IMG/VR virus record: IMGVR_UViG_3300028844_002207
Span: 21,830-85,829 of that record
Source of the DNA: a virus
DNA length: 64,000 nt
Strand: one strand, 5' to 3'
Below are positions 21,701 through 56,762 of this stretch, one piece after another; position 1 is the stretch's first letter, and each line of letters opens with the position of its first letter. A program made the position numbers and the translations under genes. Under the pieces are notes generated by a model. It worked only from the letters and a program-made list of their open reading frames with translations. It did not search any database and had not been told where the DNA came from.

Positions 21701-24700
21701 TATAAGATCTGAAGTTAATAGTAGCTTAGAAGATAGTTTCAAAGACTTTAATGATGTAATTACATCTTTGAAAGCAAAAGATAATTTATCTACTCAAGTA
21801 TTACAAGGGTTGACTATTGCATCAGGTGTTTCAAGATCTGCTGTTGAATTATCACAACTTAAACTAAATCTTACTGATGATGCTGCATATAACTTAAAGC
21901 AAATATTTTTTAATAATTATATTAACTCTAAGTCAATAAATGATTTATTACTTGGTGACCAAGCTGTTTCTTTAAAAGATATGGTTGATAAGGTTAAAAG
22001 AGCCAAGCTACAAAATGCAGCATACTATAGTGCATATAGCCAAGTCACTGATCCAAGTAAAGGGATAACACATGCTAGTACTAACTTTGATTTGTATCCA
22101 TTCCAGGATCCAACAGCAAAGTCTGATTTTACAGGAAATGATATTGATTTAGCTGATGCACAAGTTTATATTACTTCTAAAGGTATACGCTATTCAACAT
22201 TTGCATTTGGAAGGTTAAGTCCTGCAATGGCAAGCATGTTAAATGATATTGATATGGGTCAAACCATTAATGCAGACAGAGCATGGGGATCTCAAAATGA
22301 CTCAATTAATTTAGCAAAAAAACAAGACTTTATAAACTCTAAGAAGTTTGTATACATGGATGGTAAGACAGCTTTAAAAATGTCTGTTACTGTATTAACT
22401 AAAGAGTATACATCTAATAGAAATAAAGAAACCGGTATATGGGAAGCCAAACCTAATATGCAGCAGCTTCATTATTTGCGTGAACAAATGGAAGCTAATG
22501 AAGAAGCAAATCAAAACTTTGCTATGGCGGCACCAGTTTCAGCAATAAAAATGTTGAAGCAAGGTATAAACCCACTTGAGTCAGGTGTATTTGATACAAC
22601 ACAAAATTTAACATCTATAAATTTAGATACTTCATATCTAGGTCTTCAGGTTGTTAACCCATCTAATAAGCTTATAGTAACTGATATGAATCAGATCAAA
22701 GAGCTTATAACTGGTGAACAAGATGGTTCTACAGAAATATTTATAGAAGGAAGCCCTGAACTTAAAACAGTTGGTGATGTCAGAGACGCATACAATAATG
22801 CAGTTGGACAAAGGGTAATCCTAAAGTATAAGAATAAAAGGAACTTAATATTTAGTTTTGACACAGCTCTTGATGAGTTTGAAATATCTAAACAAAAAGG
22901 TGCCATAACGCCTAACCTTGCTGCATTTTTATTAGAAGCACAAAAAGGATTGATGGCATCAGGAGCAGCATCAAACTTACTTGAATTTTTTGCTGTTGAA
23001 GATGGAGTTCAAAAGTATAATTTAAATAGTCCAATTACAGCTAAGAAGTTTGAACAAATGTTCTTAACATACTTCAGTAAAGGTACAATAAGAGAAAAGG
23101 TGCCTGGAACATCAGTTGCTTTATTATCTTCATTTGGTCATAAAATTTATAGACGTGTCTATGAAATGGAAAATGGTATGCCAAGTAGGTCTGAAGTAGT
23201 AAGAGAAAGTTCTTATGCTGGAGAAAGCCTAGAAGATATAAATAACCTTGTTGATGGTAAGCATGACGGAGTTCTTGTTCTAGATGTACTTAGAACTGGG
23301 GTGATGGAATATAAAAACAATGATGTTAAAAATGGTGAGCCAACAGGAGTAAGATATAGTGAAACTATTATGCCTCCTATGTCTAGAGATGTAATGGAAC
23401 TTATTCAAGAAAATAAGGATGCTCTTATACCAGATGTGATAGCCAAAATGTTTGGAGTACGTATACCTACACAAGATAAACACTCTGCTGTAAATATTAG
23501 AATTGTTGATTTTATGCCTGTGTATTATGGTTCTACAGCTATATTTCCTAAAGAACTTGTAGAAATATCAGGAGCAGATTTTGATATTGATAAGGTTTAT
23601 GCATTAATGAAAGAATACTACTTAGATAGTAATAAAAACTTTAAAGCTTACGGAGACGGGAATAGTTATTTTGAGTATGTGAAATACATGAACTTAAAAT
23701 CATCTGAACCAAATAACATATTTAGTACAGCATCTTCATTATATAAAGATAAAACACTTGCCATAAGAAGAGATAACGCTTTAAGTGCCGCAGAACAGAC
23801 TAGGGTTACTGATGATCAAGGTGTAAATAGGATTAATGAAGAAGCTCTTAGAGCAATGTTGATATTGGGTTTACCTGTTACTCAGGCACAATTCAAATCA
23901 TACGTTAAAAAACACGGGTCACCAAACGAAGCAGTATTAAACAATAATATTTTAGACTATAGATATACTCTAGCTGGTAATACTGGTGTAACTGGTGAAT
24001 CATTAAAGTCTATTGATCAAGATAACGGAGAACGCAAGTCAGATTTACCTGTAGCTTATCAAGCAGCTGACTTAAAAATGCTAGAAGAATTATTTAATGA
24101 GCTTTCTAACCTTGAGGGTGTGGAATTATTTGCAAGTAGAAAGGATTCTGATGTAGATATTGACACACTTCATGGTATGATAAAAGCTTTTGAAGCAAAT
24201 AAAGGTGCTGCAATTGGAGCTATTGTTAAGCCTAATTTAGCATTGAGTTTACTACGTGAGTATAATATTAAATTAGATAGACCTATTAAATTTAATGGTA
24301 ATACATATGATGGCTTTACTAAGGACAAAATAAACGGAGATAGAATACAAGATATTATTTCTACTCTAGTTACAATGGAGACTGATAATGCAAAAGAACG
24401 TTTAATAGCAAAATTTGGTCTTAATATAAAAGCTGTTGGGCTTGTTGGTAATATGGTATCTTTAGGGGTTCCTTTAAGAACGGCAATTCTTTTAATAAAT
24501 TCAGCTGAAGTAAGAGATCTTTATGATCAAGCATTAAACAAAGATGATCAATTTGATGCTGGCTTTAATAAATTATTAGCAAACCGTATAAACGCAGTAG
24601 CTGCATTAGCTCAAAAACAAAAAGAAAAGACCGGTAATAAAGCTCCATTTGTAAAACTAACTGATGAATTTTTAGAATCAGCAGTAGACAGTACAGAAGA

Positions 24701-47790: not shown

Positions 47791-48207
47791 TTAGCCCGGA
47801 ATAATTATTTTAGAAGGTTCTGTCTTCTGTAAGTCTACAAAGAATTCTTCAACTGAAAAGTTATCAGCATTAATTGCAAACATATGAATGAATGTTTCTA
47901 TATCAGCTCTATCACTAAGATAAAACTCAGAAAATGTATCTACCAATCTTCTTTCTTCTTTATGTGTCTTACCTGTTTGTGGATTTGGATTTTTTAACCT
48001 TTGCGGTTGACCATCATCATCCAATTTAGGTACCATATGATAAGATTGTTTCATCACTTTACTGATGACTGCTAATATGCCTGACGCTGGGTCAAACATG
48101 GCTTCTGTGTAAGGTGAGTCTAAGCTCACAGGAATTAAAGTAAATGATTTAGTATTTCTAAAAGTAGAATTTACTAACATCATGTTTTGTCCAATTTGGT
48201 TTGCCAT
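47791..48207 (-). CDS. Hypothetical protein
   Basis: 138 aa, in operon. Confidence 0.7.
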   Translation of the reverse strand: MANQIGQNMMLVNSTFRNTKSFTLIPVSLDSPYTEAMFDPASGILAVISKVMKQSYHMVPKLDDDGQPQRLKNPNPQTGKTHKEERRLVDTFSEFYLSDRADIETFIHMFAINADNFSVEEFFVDLQKTEPSKIIIPG

Positions 48208-48213
48208 AATTTA

Positions 48214-48792
48214 TTATTTATTTGTCAAAGATATGGAACTATTTTTTAATAATTGATTAATAACATGATTATTATCAATTAACATTTCTTTGGTAAGATC
48301 AGGAGGAGTACATACTTCATATATATCTTCTACAGATTTTATATTTACACCTAGGAATTCAGCATATTCTTCATGCACACCTTCTGGTGTAAGAAATCCT
48401 TCAACGTATGATCCAATCTTATCTTGTGTTCCAAAGAAATCTATTATACTAATTTTACTATTTAAACTGTACTGAGAATATTTACCTTCAAGGAATTTTT
48501 TATAGTCAGATTTAAACTTTGTAAAATCATAAATAAACAAGTGCTTGTTTTCTTTTAACTCTATCACTTCTTCAAGCAATGAATGTTTCATTAAGTTGTT
48601 GTTTACAAAACTATTGAACTTTGGGTTTTTTTTTGTTGTGTAAACACATAAAAACTTAAGGTCATTTGTAGAATAGACATTATCCCATGCAACATACGTT
48701 TGTATTGGTACACGGGTAATGCCTTTCTTTATTTCTAGTAAAGGATAAAGAAATACTTTGCTTTTTTGAAAATATTCTAAATATACACCCAT
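48214..48792 (-). CDS. Hypothetical protein
   Basis: 192 aa, in operon. Confidence 0.7.
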   Translation of the reverse strand: MGVYLEYFQKSKVFLYPLLEIKKGITRVPIQTYVAWDNVYSTNDLKFLCVYTTKKNPKFNSFVNNNLMKHSLLEEVIELKENKHLFIYDFTKFKSDYKKFLEGKYSQYSLNSKISIIDFFGTQDKIGSYVEGFLTPEGVHEEYAEFLGVNIKSVEDIYEVCTPPDLTKEMLIDNNHVINQLLKNSSISLTNK

Positions 48793-48793
48793 A

Positions 48794-49783
48794 CTATAAT
48801 TTAACCTTTTCTATTAACAAATCATAAGGTAATGAATAGTTTTTCTCACTGTAATGATAATCTGCAATCTTTAAAACACCACCTAAACCCTCAGCCCATT
48901 TGACCATTGACTCTTGTGATACTTCATAAACATATACTTGATTATACTTATCAATGACTATAAACTTAAATGTTATTGTGTAGTCATCTCTATCTTGTCC
49001 AAGAGAATCATATACCATTTTAGAGTATATAGCTGCCTGTAACCAATAGTTATAAAAGTCAACACTTTCAGAAAAATTATCTACAGTCTTGCCGGATGTT
49101 TTGAGGTCACATATTGTAACTGTCTTTGTCTCAGTGTCAACTGTATAATAATCAACATAGCCATGTAAACCAAAAGCAAATGTCTCTAACTTAGATTTAA
49201 GATATTCTTCTGCATGCGTGGATATTGGATCTAAATCAAAATCAGTTGATTGATTTTTAAATAAACTCATAACCTCTTCATTAGCTTTTATAACTTCAGC
49301 TTTAGCAGTACAGTCTAATAATGTATCTTCATTAATGACATCTACATTAGTATTAGATAAGAATTCCCAATAAGGTTCAAACTCTTTTTTTATGATCTTT
49401 ACAATACGTTGTTCATCTGTTTTAAGAGATTGATACAAATTCATTTCTTTGAGTGAATCCAATACTATTTCAGATGGAACATCAAATAACAATTTTGCAT
49501 CAGTATATAAAGACATGTTTTTTAGGACCTTTCTAACACTATCTGATGGTGCTTTACCGGGTACAATGTTAAACTTTTTGTTTAAGTTTTCAGGTTCAAA
49601 TACTAAACAATGCACAAGTTTACCTTCTACTAAATGCTTGTCAGTTCTGATCTCACGATCTTGTAAAATATAGTCCTTATAAAATAAGGATGGGGAAAAT
49701 AATAATTTGTTAAGAGAAGAATAGCTAAATGCAAAATTCTTATTTGCATAAAACTCCTCTTCCCTTTCCATGTTTCTATTCAT
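48794..49783 (-). CDS. PD-(D/E)XK exonuclease (RecB/RecE-like)
   Basis: FSYSSL, GKLVHCLV, HGYVDYY...ICDLKTS, YWLQAAIY. Confidence 0.8.
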   Translation of the reverse strand: MNRNMEREEEFYANKNFAFSYSSLNKLLFSPSLFYKDYILQDREIRTDKHLVEGKLVHCLVFEPENLNKKFNIVPGKAPSDSVRKVLKNMSLYTDAKLLFDVPSEIVLDSLKEMNLYQSLKTDEQRIVKIIKKEFEPYWEFLSNTNVDVINEDTLLDCTAKAEVIKANEEVMSLFKNQSTDFDLDPISTHAEEYLKSKLETFAFGLHGYVDYYTVDTETKTVTICDLKTSGKTVDNFSESVDFYNYWLQAAIYSKMVYDSLGQDRDDYTITFKFIVIDKYNQVYVYEVSQESMVKWAEGLGGVLKIADYHYSEKNYSLPYDLLIEKVKL

Positions 49784-50921
49784 CTGAAATAATTTTATTA
49801 GTTAACTCTTCATTGATATATAGTGAATCTAAGTCTACCCTAAATACATCTGCACGTGGGCCAACTAGATTACCTAAAAATGTTTTATGAAGCTTTTCTT
49901 TGGTACTATCCACAGCAAATTTACTTAATTTTCTGTCAGTAGCCAAAAGATTTAGATACTTATTGAAAGAGTAAATAGCTTGAGTGTTATGGTTTCCCTC
50001 ATAAGATTTCATTCTTTTTCTAAAAGCTTTAACGTTAACTGTGTTCCAGTTTGTAGTAGCCTTAAGCCAATCATAGTGCCAGAAATAAATACCAGATACC
50101 ACATCAAAAGATTTTTCAATATTGGAGTTAGCCAACATCTCTAAAGCTAATGATCTATTATCTATGTCACTACTAGTAACCATCTTTTCTACCTCATCAA
50201 ACTTTTCATTTTCTAAAACAGCAAGGTCTTCATCTATTATAGCACATACATCAATGTCTGCAATAAGATCAACACCAGAATTTATTATGGTGTCATATGT
50301 ATCATAGTTCTCTTTTGGTAATATCCAATCATGACCTCTATCTTCTTTCCTGTTGGCTTGTGATATTTGTTCTACAAACTCATACATTTTTATTGCAGTA
50401 GGATCAGATTCTGACCAATCTTTATTATACTTAAAAGTAACTCTATATGTAGTATCTGTTTGAGACATAAAATCTCTTAGTTCAGTTAGTGCAGAGTCAG
50501 ATAATAAATCTGAATTTTTAAGTTCTGATAAAATACCATAGAGCTCTACATATGAAATAGAATTTCCCCATTCTCTATTAACTAGATTATCAAAGAACTT
50601 CATAGATACAATACCTATGTCAGCTTTATTTATATCTCTAATAACTTTACAGTTAAACTTCTCTTTTAAAAGATCTACTTTCTGTCTAGGTAAATCCAAT
50701 CTTGGATACCTATAGATTTTTTTATCTTGCAAGTCAACAGAATCTACAAGGCCTGGTACACCAAGCTTTTGCATATCTTCTGCTCTAACTTCCCATGAAT
50801 TACTGCAATAAACATGCATACCATCAAGAAAGTTCCATTTAAATGCATTTCCTGTTAGTCTACCATTGTTATCTATATTAGCAGCTTGACAATTAATTTC
50901 TATACTTACTCTTTTTTTCAT
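49776..50921 (-). CDS. Hypothetical protein with BRCT-like segment (paralogue A)
   Basis: KIYRYPRLDLPRQKVDLLKEKFNCKVIRDINKADIGIV; also has a helical motif shared with its neighbours. Confidence 0.6.
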   Translation of the reverse strand: MKKRVSIEINCQAANIDNNGRLTGNAFKWNFLDGMHVYCSNSWEVRAEDMQKLGVPGLVDSVDLQDKKIYRYPRLDLPRQKVDLLKEKFNCKVIRDINKADIGIVSMKFFDNLVNREWGNSISYVELYGILSELKNSDLLSDSALTELRDFMSQTDTTYRVTFKYNKDWSESDPTAIKMYEFVEQISQANRKEDRGHDWILPKENYDTYDTIINSGVDLIADIDVCAIIDEDLAVLENEKFDEVEKMVTSSDIDNRSLALEMLANSNIEKSFDVVSGIYFWHYDWLKATTNWNTVNVKAFRKRMKSYEGNHNTQAIYSFNKYLNLLATDRKLSKFAVDSTKEKLHKTFLGNLVGPRADVFRVDLDSLYINEELTNKIISDE

Positions 50922-51955
50922 TTCTTTAAATATTTTTGATATTCTTTTTTAACAGCTACTTTAAATGTATAAAGATCTCTGTTGTGAATGCTTATTTCTC
51001 TCCTCACTATAGGCTCAAGATATCTAAATGATACTTTATCAAGTTTATCTTGATCCTCTAACCATAGTATCATGTCTTGTGCACTTTTATGGGTAAAAAA
51101 ATTAAAGTTTGATGCTTGCAACCAATATTGCAAATCTTTATCTCTATTGTCTGCATATGTTATACTACTACAGTCTTGAGCAAACTGCCATAATAAATGA
51201 TAGTTTTTCTTATAATCAATAGTAGGAATAATTTTAAGAGCTAAAGCCTTATCATCACCATAAGCATTCAGTTGTGCTTTTAAATCATTAAAAAGCTCTT
51301 CATCAAGAGTCATTTTAGTAGCAGATGCATGTAACACAGTTTCAGGATCAATAACACTAACGTCTGTGGTATCAATTATATGCGCTAAATTTATAGCCAT
51401 ACCAGTAATCATCCAGTTATCATATAGACTATCTTTTATATCTATATCATAATATCTTACATTGTCTGTAATTTTAGGTGTAATAATACACTCTAAACCA
51501 GAATCTGATACTTTTTTAAGAACACCCATTTTTGTTGCATCTCCTATTGTAGTTTCATAATTCCATATCTTATTCATCATTATTGTAGATGGGATATTTT
51601 CCGCATTCTGTAATGTATTAGCAGTAATGTCTTCATGACCTATAATTAAATCTGCTAATTCATAATCATTTGTTACAGTTATACCATGCTCTTTAAGAGC
51701 AGCTTTTAATCTATCTTGTGATGCATTACACTTAGGTAATATAAAAGCTTTCTTTTTGGTTCTAAAAGTTTGGTCATCCTCTGTGGGTACCGTTAGTATA
51801 GTATTTATTTTCTCATAAGTTGTTTGATCTTGAGTACATAATACTTTATTAACATCCTCTGAACCAGAAAGGACACCATAAATAGTGTCCTTTTCTAGTC
51901 CAAAGTAAGCTAAAGCATCAGCATCAAAATCTTGATATACTGATTTATTTGCCAT
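50918..51955 (-). CDS. Hypothetical protein with BRCT-like segment (paralogue B)
   Basis: KAFILPKCNASQDRLKAALKEHGITVTNDYELADLIIGH; ATGA coupling to paralogue A. Confidence 0.6.
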   Translation of the reverse strand: MANKSVYQDFDADALAYFGLEKDTIYGVLSGSEDVNKVLCTQDQTTYEKINTILTVPTEDDQTFRTKKKAFILPKCNASQDRLKAALKEHGITVTNDYELADLIIGHEDITANTLQNAENIPSTIMMNKIWNYETTIGDATKMGVLKKVSDSGLECIITPKITDNVRYYDIDIKDSLYDNWMITGMAINLAHIIDTTDVSVIDPETVLHASATKMTLDEELFNDLKAQLNAYGDDKALALKIIPTIDYKKNYHLLWQFAQDCSSITYADNRDKDLQYWLQASNFNFFTHKSAQDMILWLEDQDKLDKVSFRYLEPIVRREISIHNRDLYTFKVAVKKEYQKYLKK

Positions 51956-51956
51956 T

Positions 51957-53225
51957 TTATTTCATTGTCATTTGGATGATCTCTGGAACCATCATCAATT
52001 TGTTAAACTTCTTTTTATTACCATTAAAAATAGTACGTACAATTAAATACTTAAGATCATTGGTAAAATAATCTTTTGTACATAATGCTATTAATCTATC
52101 AGTCAACTTCTGAGTTATTGTATTCTCTTTAGAATGAACAACTGAGAAGTTACCCAGCCTTGTAGCCAGAGTAGATGCAATATCTGCACGGTACGTATCA
52201 TCTTTACCAATACAACCTCTAAGCTCACCTAAGATGTATGCCTCATTATCATGAGTCAACAAATCTTTTGGTGTTACTAGCTTATCAAGCTTATTATTAA
52301 TAAAGGTTGTAAACATAGAAGCAAACTCATCTCCAACACTACCTTCTCCAATCATTTGGATTAAAGATAAGTTATCCTCAAAATTATCAAAACTTGATAT
52401 AGAGTTAAAGAAAGTTGTAATAGATCTTGCATTTGTTTCTTGCGTTACAAGTTCTGGATGAAGTAACAGGAAGTTAATACATCTTGTATCAATTCCTGCA
52501 CCTTCAGCCCACTCTGCCCATACATTAACATCAAACTTAAGGTTTGCGGTTACATATCTAGTCTTCTGTGCACTATCTACACTGTTAACCATATAATCCC
52601 CGTTATCCGGATTTGCTGTCAAAATTATGTGCCAGTCTTTTGGTAGAGTCCATGAAATATAAGTTTGTCTGTCAATCAACTCCATCACAGCTTGAATAAA
52701 TCTTGTGTCAGCTCTGTTCCAGTCATCTAATAATAAGATACCACCTTCTTTAGCGTCAGCAATCCATTCAGGTGCACAATAAGACATTCTATTCTTACCG
52801 GTCATCTTAAATCCTTGCTTAAGATATTCTTGTACTGCAAGCTCATCAACCCATTGACCAACTTTTTTTGTTACAGGACCCATTTTAGCTAAGTCAGCAG
52901 ATGCTGCAGCTCTTTGTGCAGCAGTATAACTGATATCATCTAATTTCTTTGCTGGTACTATTTTCTCTTTGTACATCTGAAATTGACGTACAGGGAAACC
53001 AACTAAGTCACCCAACTCTTCTATCTGAGCTAGGTTTAACTTTACAAATTTTAGGTTATTTTCCTGAGCAAGCTCTACTATAGTAGAAGTCTTACCAATA
53101 CCTGATTCACCTACAACTTCTACTGATACAGGGCTTTTATCACCCTTTTGTAAAAATCTGTTGTTTGTAATTATGTGATTTACAAATCCTTTTAACTCTG
53201 TTACATTTAAATTTACTTGTGCCAT
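51957..53225 (-). CDS. MoxR-like AAA+ ATPase
   Basis: Walker A GESGIGKT, Walker B LLLDDWNRAD, DLVGFP...APEW, ILTANP. Confidence 0.85.
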   Translation of the reverse strand: MAQVNLNVTELKGFVNHIITNNRFLQKGDKSPVSVEVVGESGIGKTSTIVELAQENNLKFVKLNLAQIEELGDLVGFPVRQFQMYKEKIVPAKKLDDISYTAAQRAAASADLAKMGPVTKKVGQWVDELAVQEYLKQGFKMTGKNRMSYCAPEWIADAKEGGILLLDDWNRADTRFIQAVMELIDRQTYISWTLPKDWHIILTANPDNGDYMVNSVDSAQKTRYVTANLKFDVNVWAEWAEGAGIDTRCINFLLLHPELVTQETNARSITTFFNSISSFDNFEDNLSLIQMIGEGSVGDEFASMFTTFINNKLDKLVTPKDLLTHDNEAYILGELRGCIGKDDTYRADIASTLATRLGNFSVVHSKENTITQKLTDRLIALCTKDYFTNDLKYLIVRTIFNGNKKKFNKLMMVPEIIQMTMK

Positions 53226-53231
53226 TTTCTA

Positions 53232-54395
53232 TTAATTTAATTTTATTACTTGTCCTGGTAACTCATCATTCATATCAGATATACTACTAAGAACCCATAA
53301 GGTATTCTTAGGACAGTCATCTGGAGAATAAGCTTCACCATCTGTTAAATATACAAGAGCTGTATAAGCTCCTTTATTTTCATTAAAATGATCTATTACT
53401 GGTTGAAAACTAGTTCCACCACGACCGTGTATTTCCCAATCTTTCTTTGGATTAAATTCTACCACACTTCTTAAACTAGTGTCACACTGTGCAATTGTAA
53501 TCTTATGACCTGTTTTATGCATATGAGCTAATTCACTAAAGAATTCTTTCAGCTCTTCATTATTTACAGATCCACTTGTGTCAACGCCAACTAGTATATG
53601 ATTCTTGAATTTAATCTTAAGGCCTGGATTAGCAGCATAACGTTTATTGTATTTACGTCTCAGCTTTTTAGTATATACTATAGAAGAATTACCTACAAAC
53701 CTTCTTAGATATCCTTTCCAATCAAACTTAGGCGGTTCAATATGTGTTAGCCTGCGTATCAAATCAGAAAGTTCACCTGGTATATTACCACATTTCTTTT
53801 CTGTTTGTTCAGCAGCTTCTTTTAATTGATGCTCAATTTGTTTTTGCATCAATTTTTTATCAGCTTCAGGCAATTCATCAAACTCTTCCCATGTACTATG
53901 ACAATGTGGGCTATTACCATCCATAGTGTCCATTAAGCTATCTAATGATGGGCAAGACCCATCTTGTTGTGCTTGTTCTAAAAGCTCATAGTACTTTTTA
54001 GTACCTGCTTTAGTTGGAAGATTCAATTCAGGAAAACTTGATAATAATAATCCACCGGTTGGTAAATTACTTTCCAGTATGTACTGGTTAATTTCTAAAT
54101 CAGCAGCTATATTAAATAACTTATGATCAGAATATAGATCTCTTAATAATAAATGACCAAATGCAATATGCAAAAGCTCATGTTTAATTAATCCAAATCT
54201 GTGATCTTCACTAAGATTATTAAAAAACTCTGGGTTTATAGTCAATTGCATACCAATACCTTTCTTGCTTACTCCTGCTGTAGGAATATGCTCACTGTAT
54301 TGCTTATTGATACCAATTAAAAAGAGCCCGTAAAAGGGCTCTGTAAATATTAAACTTTTGGTTGTCCGTGCAACCTGATCTTGTATTTTTATCAT
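53232..54395 (-). CDS. DUF2201-type protein: HExxH metallopeptidase-like N-terminus + VWA domain
   Basis: KHELLHIAFGH, NIAADLEIN; MIDAS motif VDTSGSV, GRGGTSF, YLTDGE. Confidence 0.85.
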   Translation of the reverse strand: MIKIQDQVARTTKSLIFTEPFYGLFLIGINKQYSEHIPTAGVSKKGIGMQLTINPEFFNNLSEDHRFGLIKHELLHIAFGHLLLRDLYSDHKLFNIAADLEINQYILESNLPTGGLLLSSFPELNLPTKAGTKKYYELLEQAQQDGSCPSLDSLMDTMDGNSPHCHSTWEEFDELPEADKKLMQKQIEHQLKEAAEQTEKKCGNIPGELSDLIRRLTHIEPPKFDWKGYLRRFVGNSSIVYTKKLRRKYNKRYAANPGLKIKFKNHILVGVDTSGSVNNEELKEFFSELAHMHKTGHKITIAQCDTSLRSVVEFNPKKDWEIHGRGGTSFQPVIDHFNENKGAYTALVYLTDGEAYSPDDCPKNTLWVLSSISDMNDELPGQVIKLN

Positions 54396-54694
54396 TGATT
54401 CATAATTTTATCTAATATTTCTTTGTAAATAGATTCTGCTTTATAAAAATCTATATAGATATATAAAGCTTGCTTGCCAACTTCAGGCTGATCAATAAAT
54501 TGAACTGCATCAGCAAACTTCTTTCTGTGTTTAAAAACTAATGCTTTATGCATAAGTAAGTCAATAGCATCATCTTTATAATTATTCTTATAAATCTCCC
54601 AGGCCATCTCCTGATCATCAGGTAAACCTTGAAACATTTCTTTTAATTTAAAAAATTCATCTATTGTAATTACTTTGTAATTATCTCTATCCAT
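54392..54694 (-). CDS. Small helical protein, first gene of the AAA+/VWA module
   Basis: 100 aa; ATGA coupling to the VWA gene; shares a motif with the two BRCT-like genes. Confidence 0.65.
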   Translation of the reverse strand: MDRDNYKVITIDEFFKLKEMFQGLPDDQEMAWEIYKNNYKDDAIDLLMHKALVFKHRKKFADAVQFIDQPEVGKQALYIYIDFYKAESIYKEILDKIMNQ

Positions 54695-55038
54695 ACGCCT
54701 GGATTCTTCTTATCATAAGTATATTGCTCAAATGCAGGAATTATAAATTCTGCATTATCATCTTCTATCCAACCATACTTGACCATATCATCTTGCACTG
54801 TTTGTGCAGGATTTATATAATCAAATTTATGGCGGCTGCCTCTAATAAATTCAAAAGATATCTTAACTGGAAGCTCATGCTTCTTGAGTTCTTTCTTAAA
54901 CTCTTCAGTATATTTAAGATAAATATCTTTAGTAGCTTTTCTGTAATTCATTACAGCTTTACTAGCAATAAAGTATTTACCTGTCCATCTTCTTCCATTC
55001 TTACTAGAAGGTACGTTTCCCGGTATAAACCATTTCAT
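54670..55038 (-). CDS. RusA-like Holliday junction resolvase
   Basis: IPGNVPSSKN...FDYIN...VQDDMVKYGWIEDDN. Confidence 0.7.
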   Translation of the reverse strand: MKWFIPGNVPSSKNGRRWTGKYFIASKAVMNYRKATKDIYLKYTEEFKKELKKHELPVKISFEFIRGSRHKFDYINPAQTVQDDMVKYGWIEDDNAEFIIPAFEQYTYDKKNPGVWIEIITK

Positions 55039-56034: not shown

Positions 56035-56068
56035 AAAAAGAAATGGGCCCAGCAATATACTGAGCCCA
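56035..56068 (-). terminator. Intrinsic terminator after the putative SSB gene
   Basis: Minus-strand UGGGCUCAG-UAUAUUG-CUGGGCCCA followed by UUUCUUUUU. Confidence 0.75.
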
Positions 56069-56087
56069 CTCTTTCTAATTGGAGATA

Positions 56088-56762
56088 TTAAAGTTCAAAG
56101 TCAGATCCTGCAGTAGGAGCTGGTTCAAAGTTATTAGCAGGTGCAGATTCTTTCTTTACCATAGGACGGAAATGATTAGTATCATTCTTGTCAAATGTAA
56201 TAAGATTAGAATTTTCTGCATCTACTTCTTCAAGAGGTACACCCATTCTATTTCTCTTAGGAAGGAACAAATCATTATTTACATAACCTTCTTTGTTTTC
56301 CCATTCACGTGCACCCAAACATGCATTTACATATCCTGTTTGAGAACAAATTTTTGCAGCCTTAATCATAAAGTCTTCAATAGTATTTGCTTCAATAGCA
56401 TCAAGCTCAGCTCTTTTACCAACTACTTCAGATAAGAAAACCATAGCCTTTAATACTTCTGTATCTCTGCTGATTTCATTACCATTGTTTAATGTAGCAT
56501 CTTTAAATGGATAGGGTGAGAATCTAACTCTACCTACCTGGCCTGCATAACGTTCACCATTAGGATTGTTAACATCCTTTAAGAATCCATTAAATTCACC
56601 TACAATAGGCTCACTTTCTACATGCAATGTAATATTGTATGCATCCATATCATATGGTGTTTGATCAAATGTAATTGAGTTGATCATTACTTTTTGATTT
56701 CCTGTTCCAATAACTGGTTTTGTTCCACCTGATCCGGCAGACATGTCTTTAGTACTTAACAT
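56088..56762 (-). CDS. Putative single-stranded DNA-binding protein
   Basis: 224 aa, beta-rich, with a flexible tail ending SDFEL; lies between primase and an AAA_24 ATPase; followed by its own terminator. Confidence 0.5.
   Translation of the reverse strand: MLSTKDMSAGSGGTKPVIGTGNQKVMINSITFDQTPYDMDAYNITLHVESEPIVGEFNGFLKDVNNPNGERYAGQVGRVRFSPYPFKDATLNNGNEISRDTEVLKAMVFLSEVVGKRAELDAIEANTIEDFMIKAAKICSQTGYVNACLGAREWENKEGYVNNDLFLPKRNRMGVPLEEVDAENSNLITFDKNDTNHFRPMVKKESAPANNFEPAPTAGSDFEL

Follow-up and report, generated by a model that had tools for sequence, protein, structure and literature searches.

What does a row of five tightly packed genes do in the replication region of an uncultured crAss-like phage? 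The row lies in IMG/VR virus record IMGVR_UViG_3300028844_002207, of which a stretch of 64,000 nucleotides (nt; record positions 21,830 to 85,829), hereafter the window, was analysed. An earlier note, made from the letters without database searches, had described the five genes between positions 49,776 and 54,694 as a coupled module encoding a small helical protein, a peptidase–VWA protein, a MoxR-like AAA+ ATPase and two BRCT-like paralogues. We refer to the five genes as the block, and in reading order as g1, the VWA gene, the ATPase gene, g4 and g5. All five open reading frames (ORFs) are on the minus strand, and their positions and junctions were confirmed: a 4-nt overlap, a 6-nt gap, a 1-nt gap and a 4-nt overlap from g1 to g5. 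The analysis showed that the ATPase and the peptidase–VWA protein are very probably a pair of the phage N4 gp24/gp25 type. We put at slightly better than even the chance that the whole block is the crAss-lineage version of this machine, enlarged by a partner-protein family of its own. The block had been put forward as an uncharacterised system, but the pair is already known as a gene pair, in N4 as gp24/gp25 (PMC4193335) and in jumbo phages (PMC7824862). The new element is the partner family and its near-constant association with the pair in a very large radiation of uncultured phages.

The ATPase matched phrog_1297 over residues 23–417 (E 3.8e-35). The Pfam family AAA_5 scored just below its gathering threshold (21.1 bits against a cut-off of 22, E 3.2e-4). 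The best solved relatives were the AAA modules of midasin (E 3e-8, several of the six modules), and the best GenBank phage match was the 'MoxR-like ATPase' of S-TIM5. Together with a Walker A motif and an extended, MoxR-type Walker B motif, these matches upheld the reading of the protein as MoxR-like. The insertion that had been put at about 55 residues was roughly right; it covers about 65, is missing in the N4-like and S-TIM5-like ATPases, and is present with variable length in the crAss-like relatives. The Walker B motif has DD instead of DE throughout the crAss-like ATPase subfamily (alignment A4), whereas the N4-like and S-TIM5-like proteins keep DE.

The VWA protein matched Pfam DUF2201_N at residues 15–253 (66.4 bits, cut-off 23.2) and DUF2201 at residues 268–386 (61.8 bits, cut-off 26.4), with the two domains in the expected N-to-C order. 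It also matched phrog_1314 (E 1.2e-66), whose label 'HNH endonuclease' is evidently a mis-annotation. The HExxH motif and the metal-ion-dependent adhesion site (MIDAS) that had been read from the sequence were both found intact. The predicted zinc-binding and catalytic motif is HELLH, in which H72, E73 and H76 are invariant in alignment A5. The MIDAS is complete (D272-T-S274-G-S276, G326-G-T328 and T351-D352). Both motifs are retained in full out to the N4-like, S-TIM5-like and Alteromonas AD45-P4 homologues. A tblastn search with the VWA protein returned 447 GenBank phage records, mostly of N4-like podoviruses, Rak2/121Q-like jumbo phages and S-TIM5-like cyanophages.

A gene annotated 'MoxR-like ATPase' adjoins the VWA gene in the N4-like, S-TIM5-like and AD45-P4 records (three inspected). 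We assign the pair to the N4 gp24/gp25 type because the Pfam and PHROG matches, midasin as the best solved relative, the conserved motifs and the same annotated adjacent pair all point that way. In N4-like phages gp24 (AAA ATPase) and gp25 (vWFA) are among the 14 core genes and are middle transcripts (PMC4193335). The N4 pair (Schitoviridae) and the pair of the window share the phrog_1297 and phrog_1314/DUF2201 families, adjacency, direction, an intact HExxH and MIDAS, and a place among middle or replication genes. They differ in that the order is reversed here (VWA first), that the ATPase here has the insert and DD, and that identity is only about 24–30%; no member of the g1/g4/g5 family was detectable beside the pair in N4-like phages. 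A MoxR ATPase with a vWA protein carrying an N-terminal metallopeptidase has also been described in the group 2.2 (Rak2/121Q-like) jumbo phages (Iyer et al. 2021, PMC7824862). The architecture there is the same, and our VWA protein matched these phages by tblastn at E 1e-13 to 1e-17, but no BRCT–HEAT partner is described, the genomic setting is another, and the role in assembly is proposed only. For the VMAP-type MoxR–vWA ternary conflict systems (Kaur et al. 2020, PMC7159879), which add a VMAP component and effector domains beside the pair, g1, g4 and g5 had no Pfam or PADLOC family, and no VMAP-specific profile was used. A scan of bacterial genomes with the VWA alignment gave one further setting. 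Clostridium, Proteiniclasticum and related chromosomes (53 species) carry a conserved row of a DUF4116 protein (~260 aa), a MoxR-like ATPase (~375 aa) and a DUF2201 peptidase–VWA protein (~455 aa). The DUF4116 helical-repeat protein holds an analogous position directly before the pair, and showed no profile similarity to g1, g4 or g5.

The three other proteins of the block had no family in Pfam (E 0.01 for g4 and g5), PHROGs, NCBIfam or PADLOC. No GenBank phage was matched by blastn with the block or by tblastn with g4 and g5, and BLASTP of g4 against g5 gave nothing (E 0.85). AlphaFold2 models of g4 and g5 were built on alignments of phage relatives and are good, with a predicted local distance difference test (pLDDT) of 78 and 86, respectively. 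Many BRCT domains headed the VIA-align lists of both models. The central alpha/beta domain of the g4 model superimposed on them with Z 5.7–7.5 (VIA-align; 61–77 residues aligned, root-mean-square deviation 2.6–3.5), and that of the g5 model with Z 4.4–5.2. For the two models together, 61–79 residues, the greater part of a BRCT domain, were aligned at a deviation of 2.5–3.9. The likeness extends to the BRCT domains of XRCC1, PARP1/4, TopBP1, MCPH1, BRCA1, REV1 and Dbf4; unlike these, the domain in g4 and g5 is split by an insert of 80–100 residues. ARM/HEAT proteins superimposed on the C-terminal helices (VIA-align; Z 5.2–6.5 for g4, 4.4–5.4 for g5). Because the Z values are modest, the modelled central domains of g4 and g5 are likely but not proven to be BRCT-like. 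A Foldseek search of the PDB gave nothing significant with the two models; ketol-acid reductoisomerases headed the list of g4, and clamp-loader subunits that of g5. That g5 is a degenerate clamp-loader subunit, which would suit a replication module, was considered and rejected (TM ~0.13, probability ~0.1, no P-loop, and BRCT plus ARM/HEAT from the domain aligner). The g4 model also resembled a Campylobacterota 'LRV family' cluster (TM 0.34) and a Bacteroidota LRR protein cluster (TM 0.44), which gives a weak structural lead.

The data support g4 and g5 as distant paralogues of one family in which a BRCT-like domain is followed by HEAT/ARM-like helices, because the models, the profiles and a bridging single-copy homologue agree. 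Both models matched the same viral cluster of the ESM Atlas (542 members). The bridging homologue is a 465-aa protein that follows the ATPase in single copy in L085, a 126-kb relative, and it matched the g5 profile at 9e-11 and the g4 profile at 6e-4. In the family alignment (65 representatives at <60% identity), g4 and g5 are colinear, with P73/P74, A100/A101 and W118/W131 conserved. The first part of the consensus is K-x-Y-x-x-P-x-x-x-x-P-R-x-K ... K-A ... W; the second, MxxSSDxDNxxLAMEIMANCN, resembles a HEAT-repeat signature. The conserved K81, R79 and P73 (g5 numbering) are at the beta1–alpha1 region. The two BRCT-like paralogues of the earlier note were thus recovered, with BRCT at a modest Z. 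g1 matched only the second, HEAT-like part of the family (hhalign P 4e-4 against the C-terminal half of g5 and 3e-3 against that of g4), and from its profile match to the helices of g5, our only basis, we infer that g1 is helical. Small ORFs abutting the VWA gene in distant lineages matched the C-terminal profile of g5 as well. Pfam HEAT matched none of g4, g5 and g1, nor the relatives of g5.

Among the matches in BFVD were a family protein of a gut 'CrAss-like virus' and a podovirus with two copies. g5 matched only uncharacterised viral proteins in AFDB, the Atlas and BFVD, and the AFDB clusters held only two relatives, both uncharacterised. Protein-atlas feature searches with g1, g4 and g5 gave no usable match. 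A profile of the family alignment gave 365 matches in 5.8 billion proteins; among the matches listed (120), none had a Pfam domain and all were named only 'hypothetical protein'.

The association of this family with the pair was followed into distant relatives. An outward search of 1.84 billion representatives gave 2920 ATPase relatives. The distant set comprised contigs and IMG/VR loci with an ATPase 29–53% identical; three relatives on short contigs were left out. These loci were again crAss-like replication modules. The VWA gene was directly upstream of the ATPase gene in 92 distant loci, with a gap of ≤200 nt in 83. An ORF of the g4/g5 family directly followed the ATPase gene in 82 of the 87 testable loci (one copy in 70, two copies in 12). 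In two of the remaining five, an ORF of 307 or 352 aa shows a weak match or a BRCT-like motif. A small ORF abutted the VWA gene in 83 of 89 loci, and the HEAT-like motif was detectable in 33. The other neighbours varied: a deoxynucleoside monophosphate kinase (DNMK) was inserted, the nuclease was absent, or RusA and the small ORF were absent. A freshwater and soil lineage (L094, L098, L100–L103, L112) has two family copies after the ATPase and no PD-(D/E)XK nuclease at the usual place. The nuclease is not tied to the block, and the duplication of g4/g5 is either ancient or has arisen more than once.

The most telling comparison was with Cellulophaga phage phi14:2, which is classified in Crassvirales. 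It has RusA, a 92-aa ORF, the exonuclease and a homologue of the conserved 192-aa ORF (o192) in a row. No ATPase, VWA or g4/g5 relative was found in the 32 kb examined, and between RusA and the exonuclease, exactly where the block would lie, it is absent. In gain and loss the block acts as one unit. AAA+/VWA pairs had been said to occur in crAss-like phages; phi14:2, the only genome of classified Crassvirales inspected, did not bear this out, and no classified Crassvirales genome was among the matches listed in two tblastn searches with VWA proteins. We found no description of the pair in crAss-like phages in the literature; the pair is in uncultured lineages.

Conservation was measured in 80 related IMG/VR loci whose ATPase is 87–98% identical to that of the window. 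The gene order was identical in 80/80: Sak4-like gene, o224, primase, RusA, g1, VWA gene, ATPase gene, g4, g5, nuclease, o192, o138 and polymerase. The five ORFs retained their length in 57–80 of the 80 loci. Identities and ratios of nonsynonymous to synonymous substitution (dN/dS) are given in Table 1; the five are real genes under purifying selection. The variation of g5 sits in its N-terminus and in the BRCT insert. Some relatives carry DUF6878 and DUF6915 proteins and a 144–145-aa ORF in place of g1 between RusA and the VWA gene; at its left end the block is variable.

An extra gene separates the VWA gene from the ATPase gene in several relatives; it is a GIY-YIG/NUMOD homing endonuclease in two and a 128–136-aa ORF without a family in seven. 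The VWA gene is in pieces in L115 and L184, and the ATPase ORF of L184 has 553 aa, which suggests invasion by an intron or intein. Introns, inteins and homing elements usually target conserved, important genes.

Table 1. Features of the block, its flanks and related loci. Coordinates are positions in the window unless preceded by a locus number (L); identity and median dN/dS are those of the close loci.
Feature	Location	Strand	Identity to window	Median dN/dS	Remarks
g1, 100 aa	54392..54694	-	30-90% (57/80 loci), or replaced	0.20	N-terminal ~45 residues are the HEAT-like motif common to g4 and g5; most variable slot of block
HEAT-like motif of g1, residues 8-48	54551..54673	-			..EFFKLKEMFQGLPDDQEMAWEIYKN..
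Zincin metallopeptidase + VWA/MIDAS protein, 387 aa	53232..54395	-	74-97%	0.12	N4 gp25-like; Pfam DUF2201_N + DUF2201; phrog_1314
HELLH zinc-binding/catalytic motif, residues 72-76	54168..54182	-			Predicted from sequence
MIDAS DTSGS, residues 272-276	53568..53582	-			D272-T-S274-G-S276
MoxR/midasin-type AAA+ ATPase, 422 aa	51957..53225	-	87-98% (80 loci)	0.08	N4 gp24-like; phrog_1297; most conserved gene of block
Walker A GESGIGKT, residues 39-46	53088..53111	-			
Walker B with MoxR-type extension ILLLDDWNR, residues 163-171	52713..52739	-			LLLDDWNRA
Lineage-variable insert, about residues 81-146 (~65 aa)	52788..52985	-			Between GDLxGxP motif and MSYCAPEW segment
g4, 345 aa	50918..51955	-	51-87% (79/80 loci)	0.20	Divergent paralogue; BRCT-like 62-214, split by insert; HEAT/ARM-like helices 214-290
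g5, 381 aa	49776..50921	-	31-95% (74 loci)	0.37	Typical member; N-terminal beta domain 1-60; BRCT-like 63-233, large variable insert; HEAT/ARM-like helices 234-310+; fastest-evolving of block
RusA-like resolvase	54670-55038				Flank of block
PD-(D/E)XK exonuclease	48794-49783				phrog_412, exonuclease VIII-like
o192, conserved 192-aa ORF	48214-48792				Homologue after phi14:2 exonuclease
227-aa ORF	56786-57469				Matches phi14:2 Sak4-like annealing protein, E 1.4e-29
g1-slot replacements	L058:5564-5956, L059:5673-6053, L059:6053-6400, L085:3306-4091				
Extra genes between VWA and ATPase genes	L084:4223-4948; L184:9553-10320; L017:7588-7974; L020:7593-7979; L044:5873-6283; L045:7313-7699; L058:7573-7974; L078:4831-5217				
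Clostridium-type rows	L187-L249, e.g. L232:4570-9224				MgsA/RarA-type AAA+ gene before DUF4116 gene in L232

The source record is 90.6 kb long (IMG/VR) and 79% complete (CheckV), and the phage is a member of an abundant, uncultured marine group whose phages are of ~115 kb. Its DNA polymerase is only ~31% identical to that of phi14:2, which it also matched with RusA (E 1e-41), the primase (2e-22) and the Sak4-like protein. A recombination set flanks the block, namely the RusA-like resolvase, the PD-(D/E)XK exonuclease, the 192-aa ORF and the Sak4-like protein; RusA overlaps g1 by 25 nt, and g5 overlaps the nuclease gene by 8 nt. Terminator-like hairpins were found only at 56071–56041 and 42168–42149. 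The hairpin at 56041–56071 (minus strand) is strong, with 14 pairs and a T-run, and lies between ORF 56088–56762 and the primase gene; the long array that includes the block probably begins there. A scan for sigma-70 promoters was uninformative (102 sites against 98.8 expected). Metatranscriptome contigs from four runs touch the ATPase gene, the VWA gene, g5, and the g4/g5 and g5/nuclease junctions; they were not counted as proof of transcription or of an operon because they are short and RNA libraries may contain DNA. The block was near-identical (97–100% of sampled words) in 14 metagenome runs of the sea and of marine sediment, which come from at least 11 studies of 2014–2020; 12 of the 14 runs were flagged as possible sources of the source assembly, and a single campaign may lie behind studies that share year and habitat. 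The source phage is widespread in the sea, since the block recurs near-identically in these 14 runs.

How might such a block work? RavA–ViaA, CbbQ–CbbO, NorQ–NorD and midasin/Rea1 each combine an AAA+ ring of the MoxR/midasin clade with a VWA adaptor that bears a MIDAS and docks on a client, and the MIDAS domain of midasin binds clients that share one small docking domain. The midasin case is a useful analogy for three partner proteins with one common motif. The classical MoxR–VWA systems differ from the block in that their VWA partners have no peptidase and their clients are metabolic enzymes or pre-ribosomes, and the similarity is at superfamily level only. A zincin HExxH protease is coupled to an AAA+ unfoldase in FtsH and in SPRTN/Wss1 with p97/Cdc48, and in the eukaryotic case it is recruited to DNA-bound proteins via adaptor domains. 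This likeness is a functional analogy only: our ATPase matched the AAA domains of FtsH/paraplegin only weakly and in a generic way (best E 0.0025), and the block encodes two separate polypeptides.

By analogy with RavA–ViaA, CbbQO, NorQD, midasin and FtsH, the ATPase ring would spend ATP on remodelling or unfolding a client protein. The VWA domain would dock by its MIDAS onto the client or an adaptor, and the fused zincin would cut the client. The pair would then be, in function, a two-piece, FtsH-like ATP-dependent metalloprotease. The BRCT–HEAT proteins would serve as adaptors or, less likely, as clients. The conserved parts of these proteins, the BRCT core and the HEAT motif, would contact the machine, and the hypervariable N-terminus and BRCT insert would select the target. 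We consider it reasonably probable that g4 and g5 are functional partners of the pair, and for g1 we put the chance at slightly below even. BRCT domains typically bind phospho-proteins or DNA ends. Because the block lies in a replication and recombination array (primase, RusA, exonuclease, DNA polymerase) and has a BRCT-like fold, the best single candidate for the target would be a DNA-associated protein handled during phage DNA replication or recombination, although we hold a target of this kind to be rather doubtful. We speculate further, as a long shot, that the block could be a DNA-directed, ATP-dependent protein-removal machine, in which the BRCT–HEAT adaptors would recognise a protein stuck on DNA or a DNA end, and the MoxR ATPase and the zincin–VWA protein would extract and cleave it, clearing the way for replication and recombination. 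On this speculation the stuck protein might belong to the host nucleoid or replisome, or it might be injected virion RNA polymerase or cargo, which crAss-like and N4-like phages alike deliver with their DNA.

Several results weigh against an enlarged N4-type machine with its own partners. The BRCT assignment depends on Z 4.4–7.5, and in VIA-align values of Z <8 are common among unrelated models; Pfam BRCT matched neither g4 nor g5, nor any of 33 g5 relatives at E 1. The link of g1 to the family is one short motif with a generic HEAT-repeat signature. Asp replaces the catalytic Glu of Walker B, so the predicted ATPase activity may be slow, regulatory or stimulated by a partner. Eleven genes, from the primase (56055) to the ORF at 47791–48207, are joined by overlaps or gaps of ≤6 nt. 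The tight junctions of the coupled five-gene module were therefore real, but they do not delimit it, because the same packing continues on both sides as one long array. The adjacency could be historical rather than functional, and since the whole replication module is collinear, adjacency alone is weak evidence of function. The g4/g5 family was undetectable beside the pair in N4-like phages, Rak2-like jumbo phages, S-TIM5-like phages, Alteromonas AD45-P4 and the Clostridium chromosomes, so that the pair works without the partner family in those carriers. The idea that the accessory genes go together with the pair thus held across the distant crAss-like loci and in their joint loss from phi14:2, but not in these other groups. 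N4 gp24 and gp25 are listed as of unknown function (PMC4193335, PMC2784036), and the only published proposal for the pair is virion assembly (PMC7824862).

In that proposal, made for the pair of the group 2.2 jumbo phages, the pair acts in virion assembly or processing by analogy with Acidianus two-tailed virus, whose tail development needs a MoxR–VWA pair (PMC7824862). Carried over to the block, it would make the pair a chaperone that folds, assembles or matures structural or packaged proteins, such as giant cargo or RNA-polymerase polyproteins, with g1, g4 and g5 as assembly co-factors. Very large ORFs (4616 and 1927 aa) are indeed present in the window, and the gene array of the block also encodes a 542-aa putative GroEL. 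However, the large structural and cargo ORFs are on the opposite strand and far from the block, which sits among replication and recombination genes; the N4 genes are middle, not late, transcripts (PMC4193335), and BRCT-like domains are atypical of assembly factors. We consider an assembly role unlikely. The fast evolution of g5 raises a different possibility, a host-takeover or counter-defence protease in which g5 and g1 would recognise host proteins of defence, nucleoid or replication for ATP-dependent inactivation. The dN/dS of g5 is the highest in the array (the ATPase has the value 0.08), its variation falls in the N-terminal domain and the insert, and unrelated small ORFs replace g1 in some relatives. 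A value of 0.37 is nevertheless still well below 1, and relaxed constraint explains it equally well. A host complex or defence protein had also been suggested in the earlier note as the target, and nothing in our results points there: no PADLOC or anti-defence family matched significantly, PADLOC giving only sub-threshold P-loop matches of the ATPase (DolB 8.4e-4, BrxF 4.8e-3, no stretch passing alone) and no match at all for g1, the VWA protein, g4 or g5. Across very different hosts the pair is a conserved core set; this suits a housekeeping role in the phage more than one in an arms race, and we hold the takeover explanation to be quite improbable.

Finally, the five genes may not form one system. 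The pair would then be the sole functional unit, and g1, g4 and g5 would be independent replication-accessory proteins that are its neighbours by collinearity. The equally tight packing of eleven genes and the constant order of all neighbours in the close clade agree with this, as do the pairs without g1, g4 and g5 in other phage groups and in bacteria, and the homing endonucleases and other ORFs that sit between the VWA and ATPase genes without the block being dissolved. Against it, phi14:2 is without all of the genes together, exactly at the slot of the block; the family directly follows the ATPase in 82/87 distant loci while other neighbours change; and family members stand on both sides of the pair. 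We therefore give little credence to a mere neighbourhood, and on balance keep to an N4 gp24/gp25-type machine with its own partner family.

The pair is core to N4-like phages, and is also carried by jumbo phages, cyanophages and uncultured crAss-like phages of the sea, fresh water, soil and gut. If a protein-removal machine of the kind speculated on above were true, it would be a prokaryotic-virus analogue of SPRTN/Wss1 with p97/Cdc48 and would explain the core status of gp24/gp25 in N4. The partner family supplies candidate adaptors or clients, and with them a practical way into the long-standing puzzle of the role of the pair.

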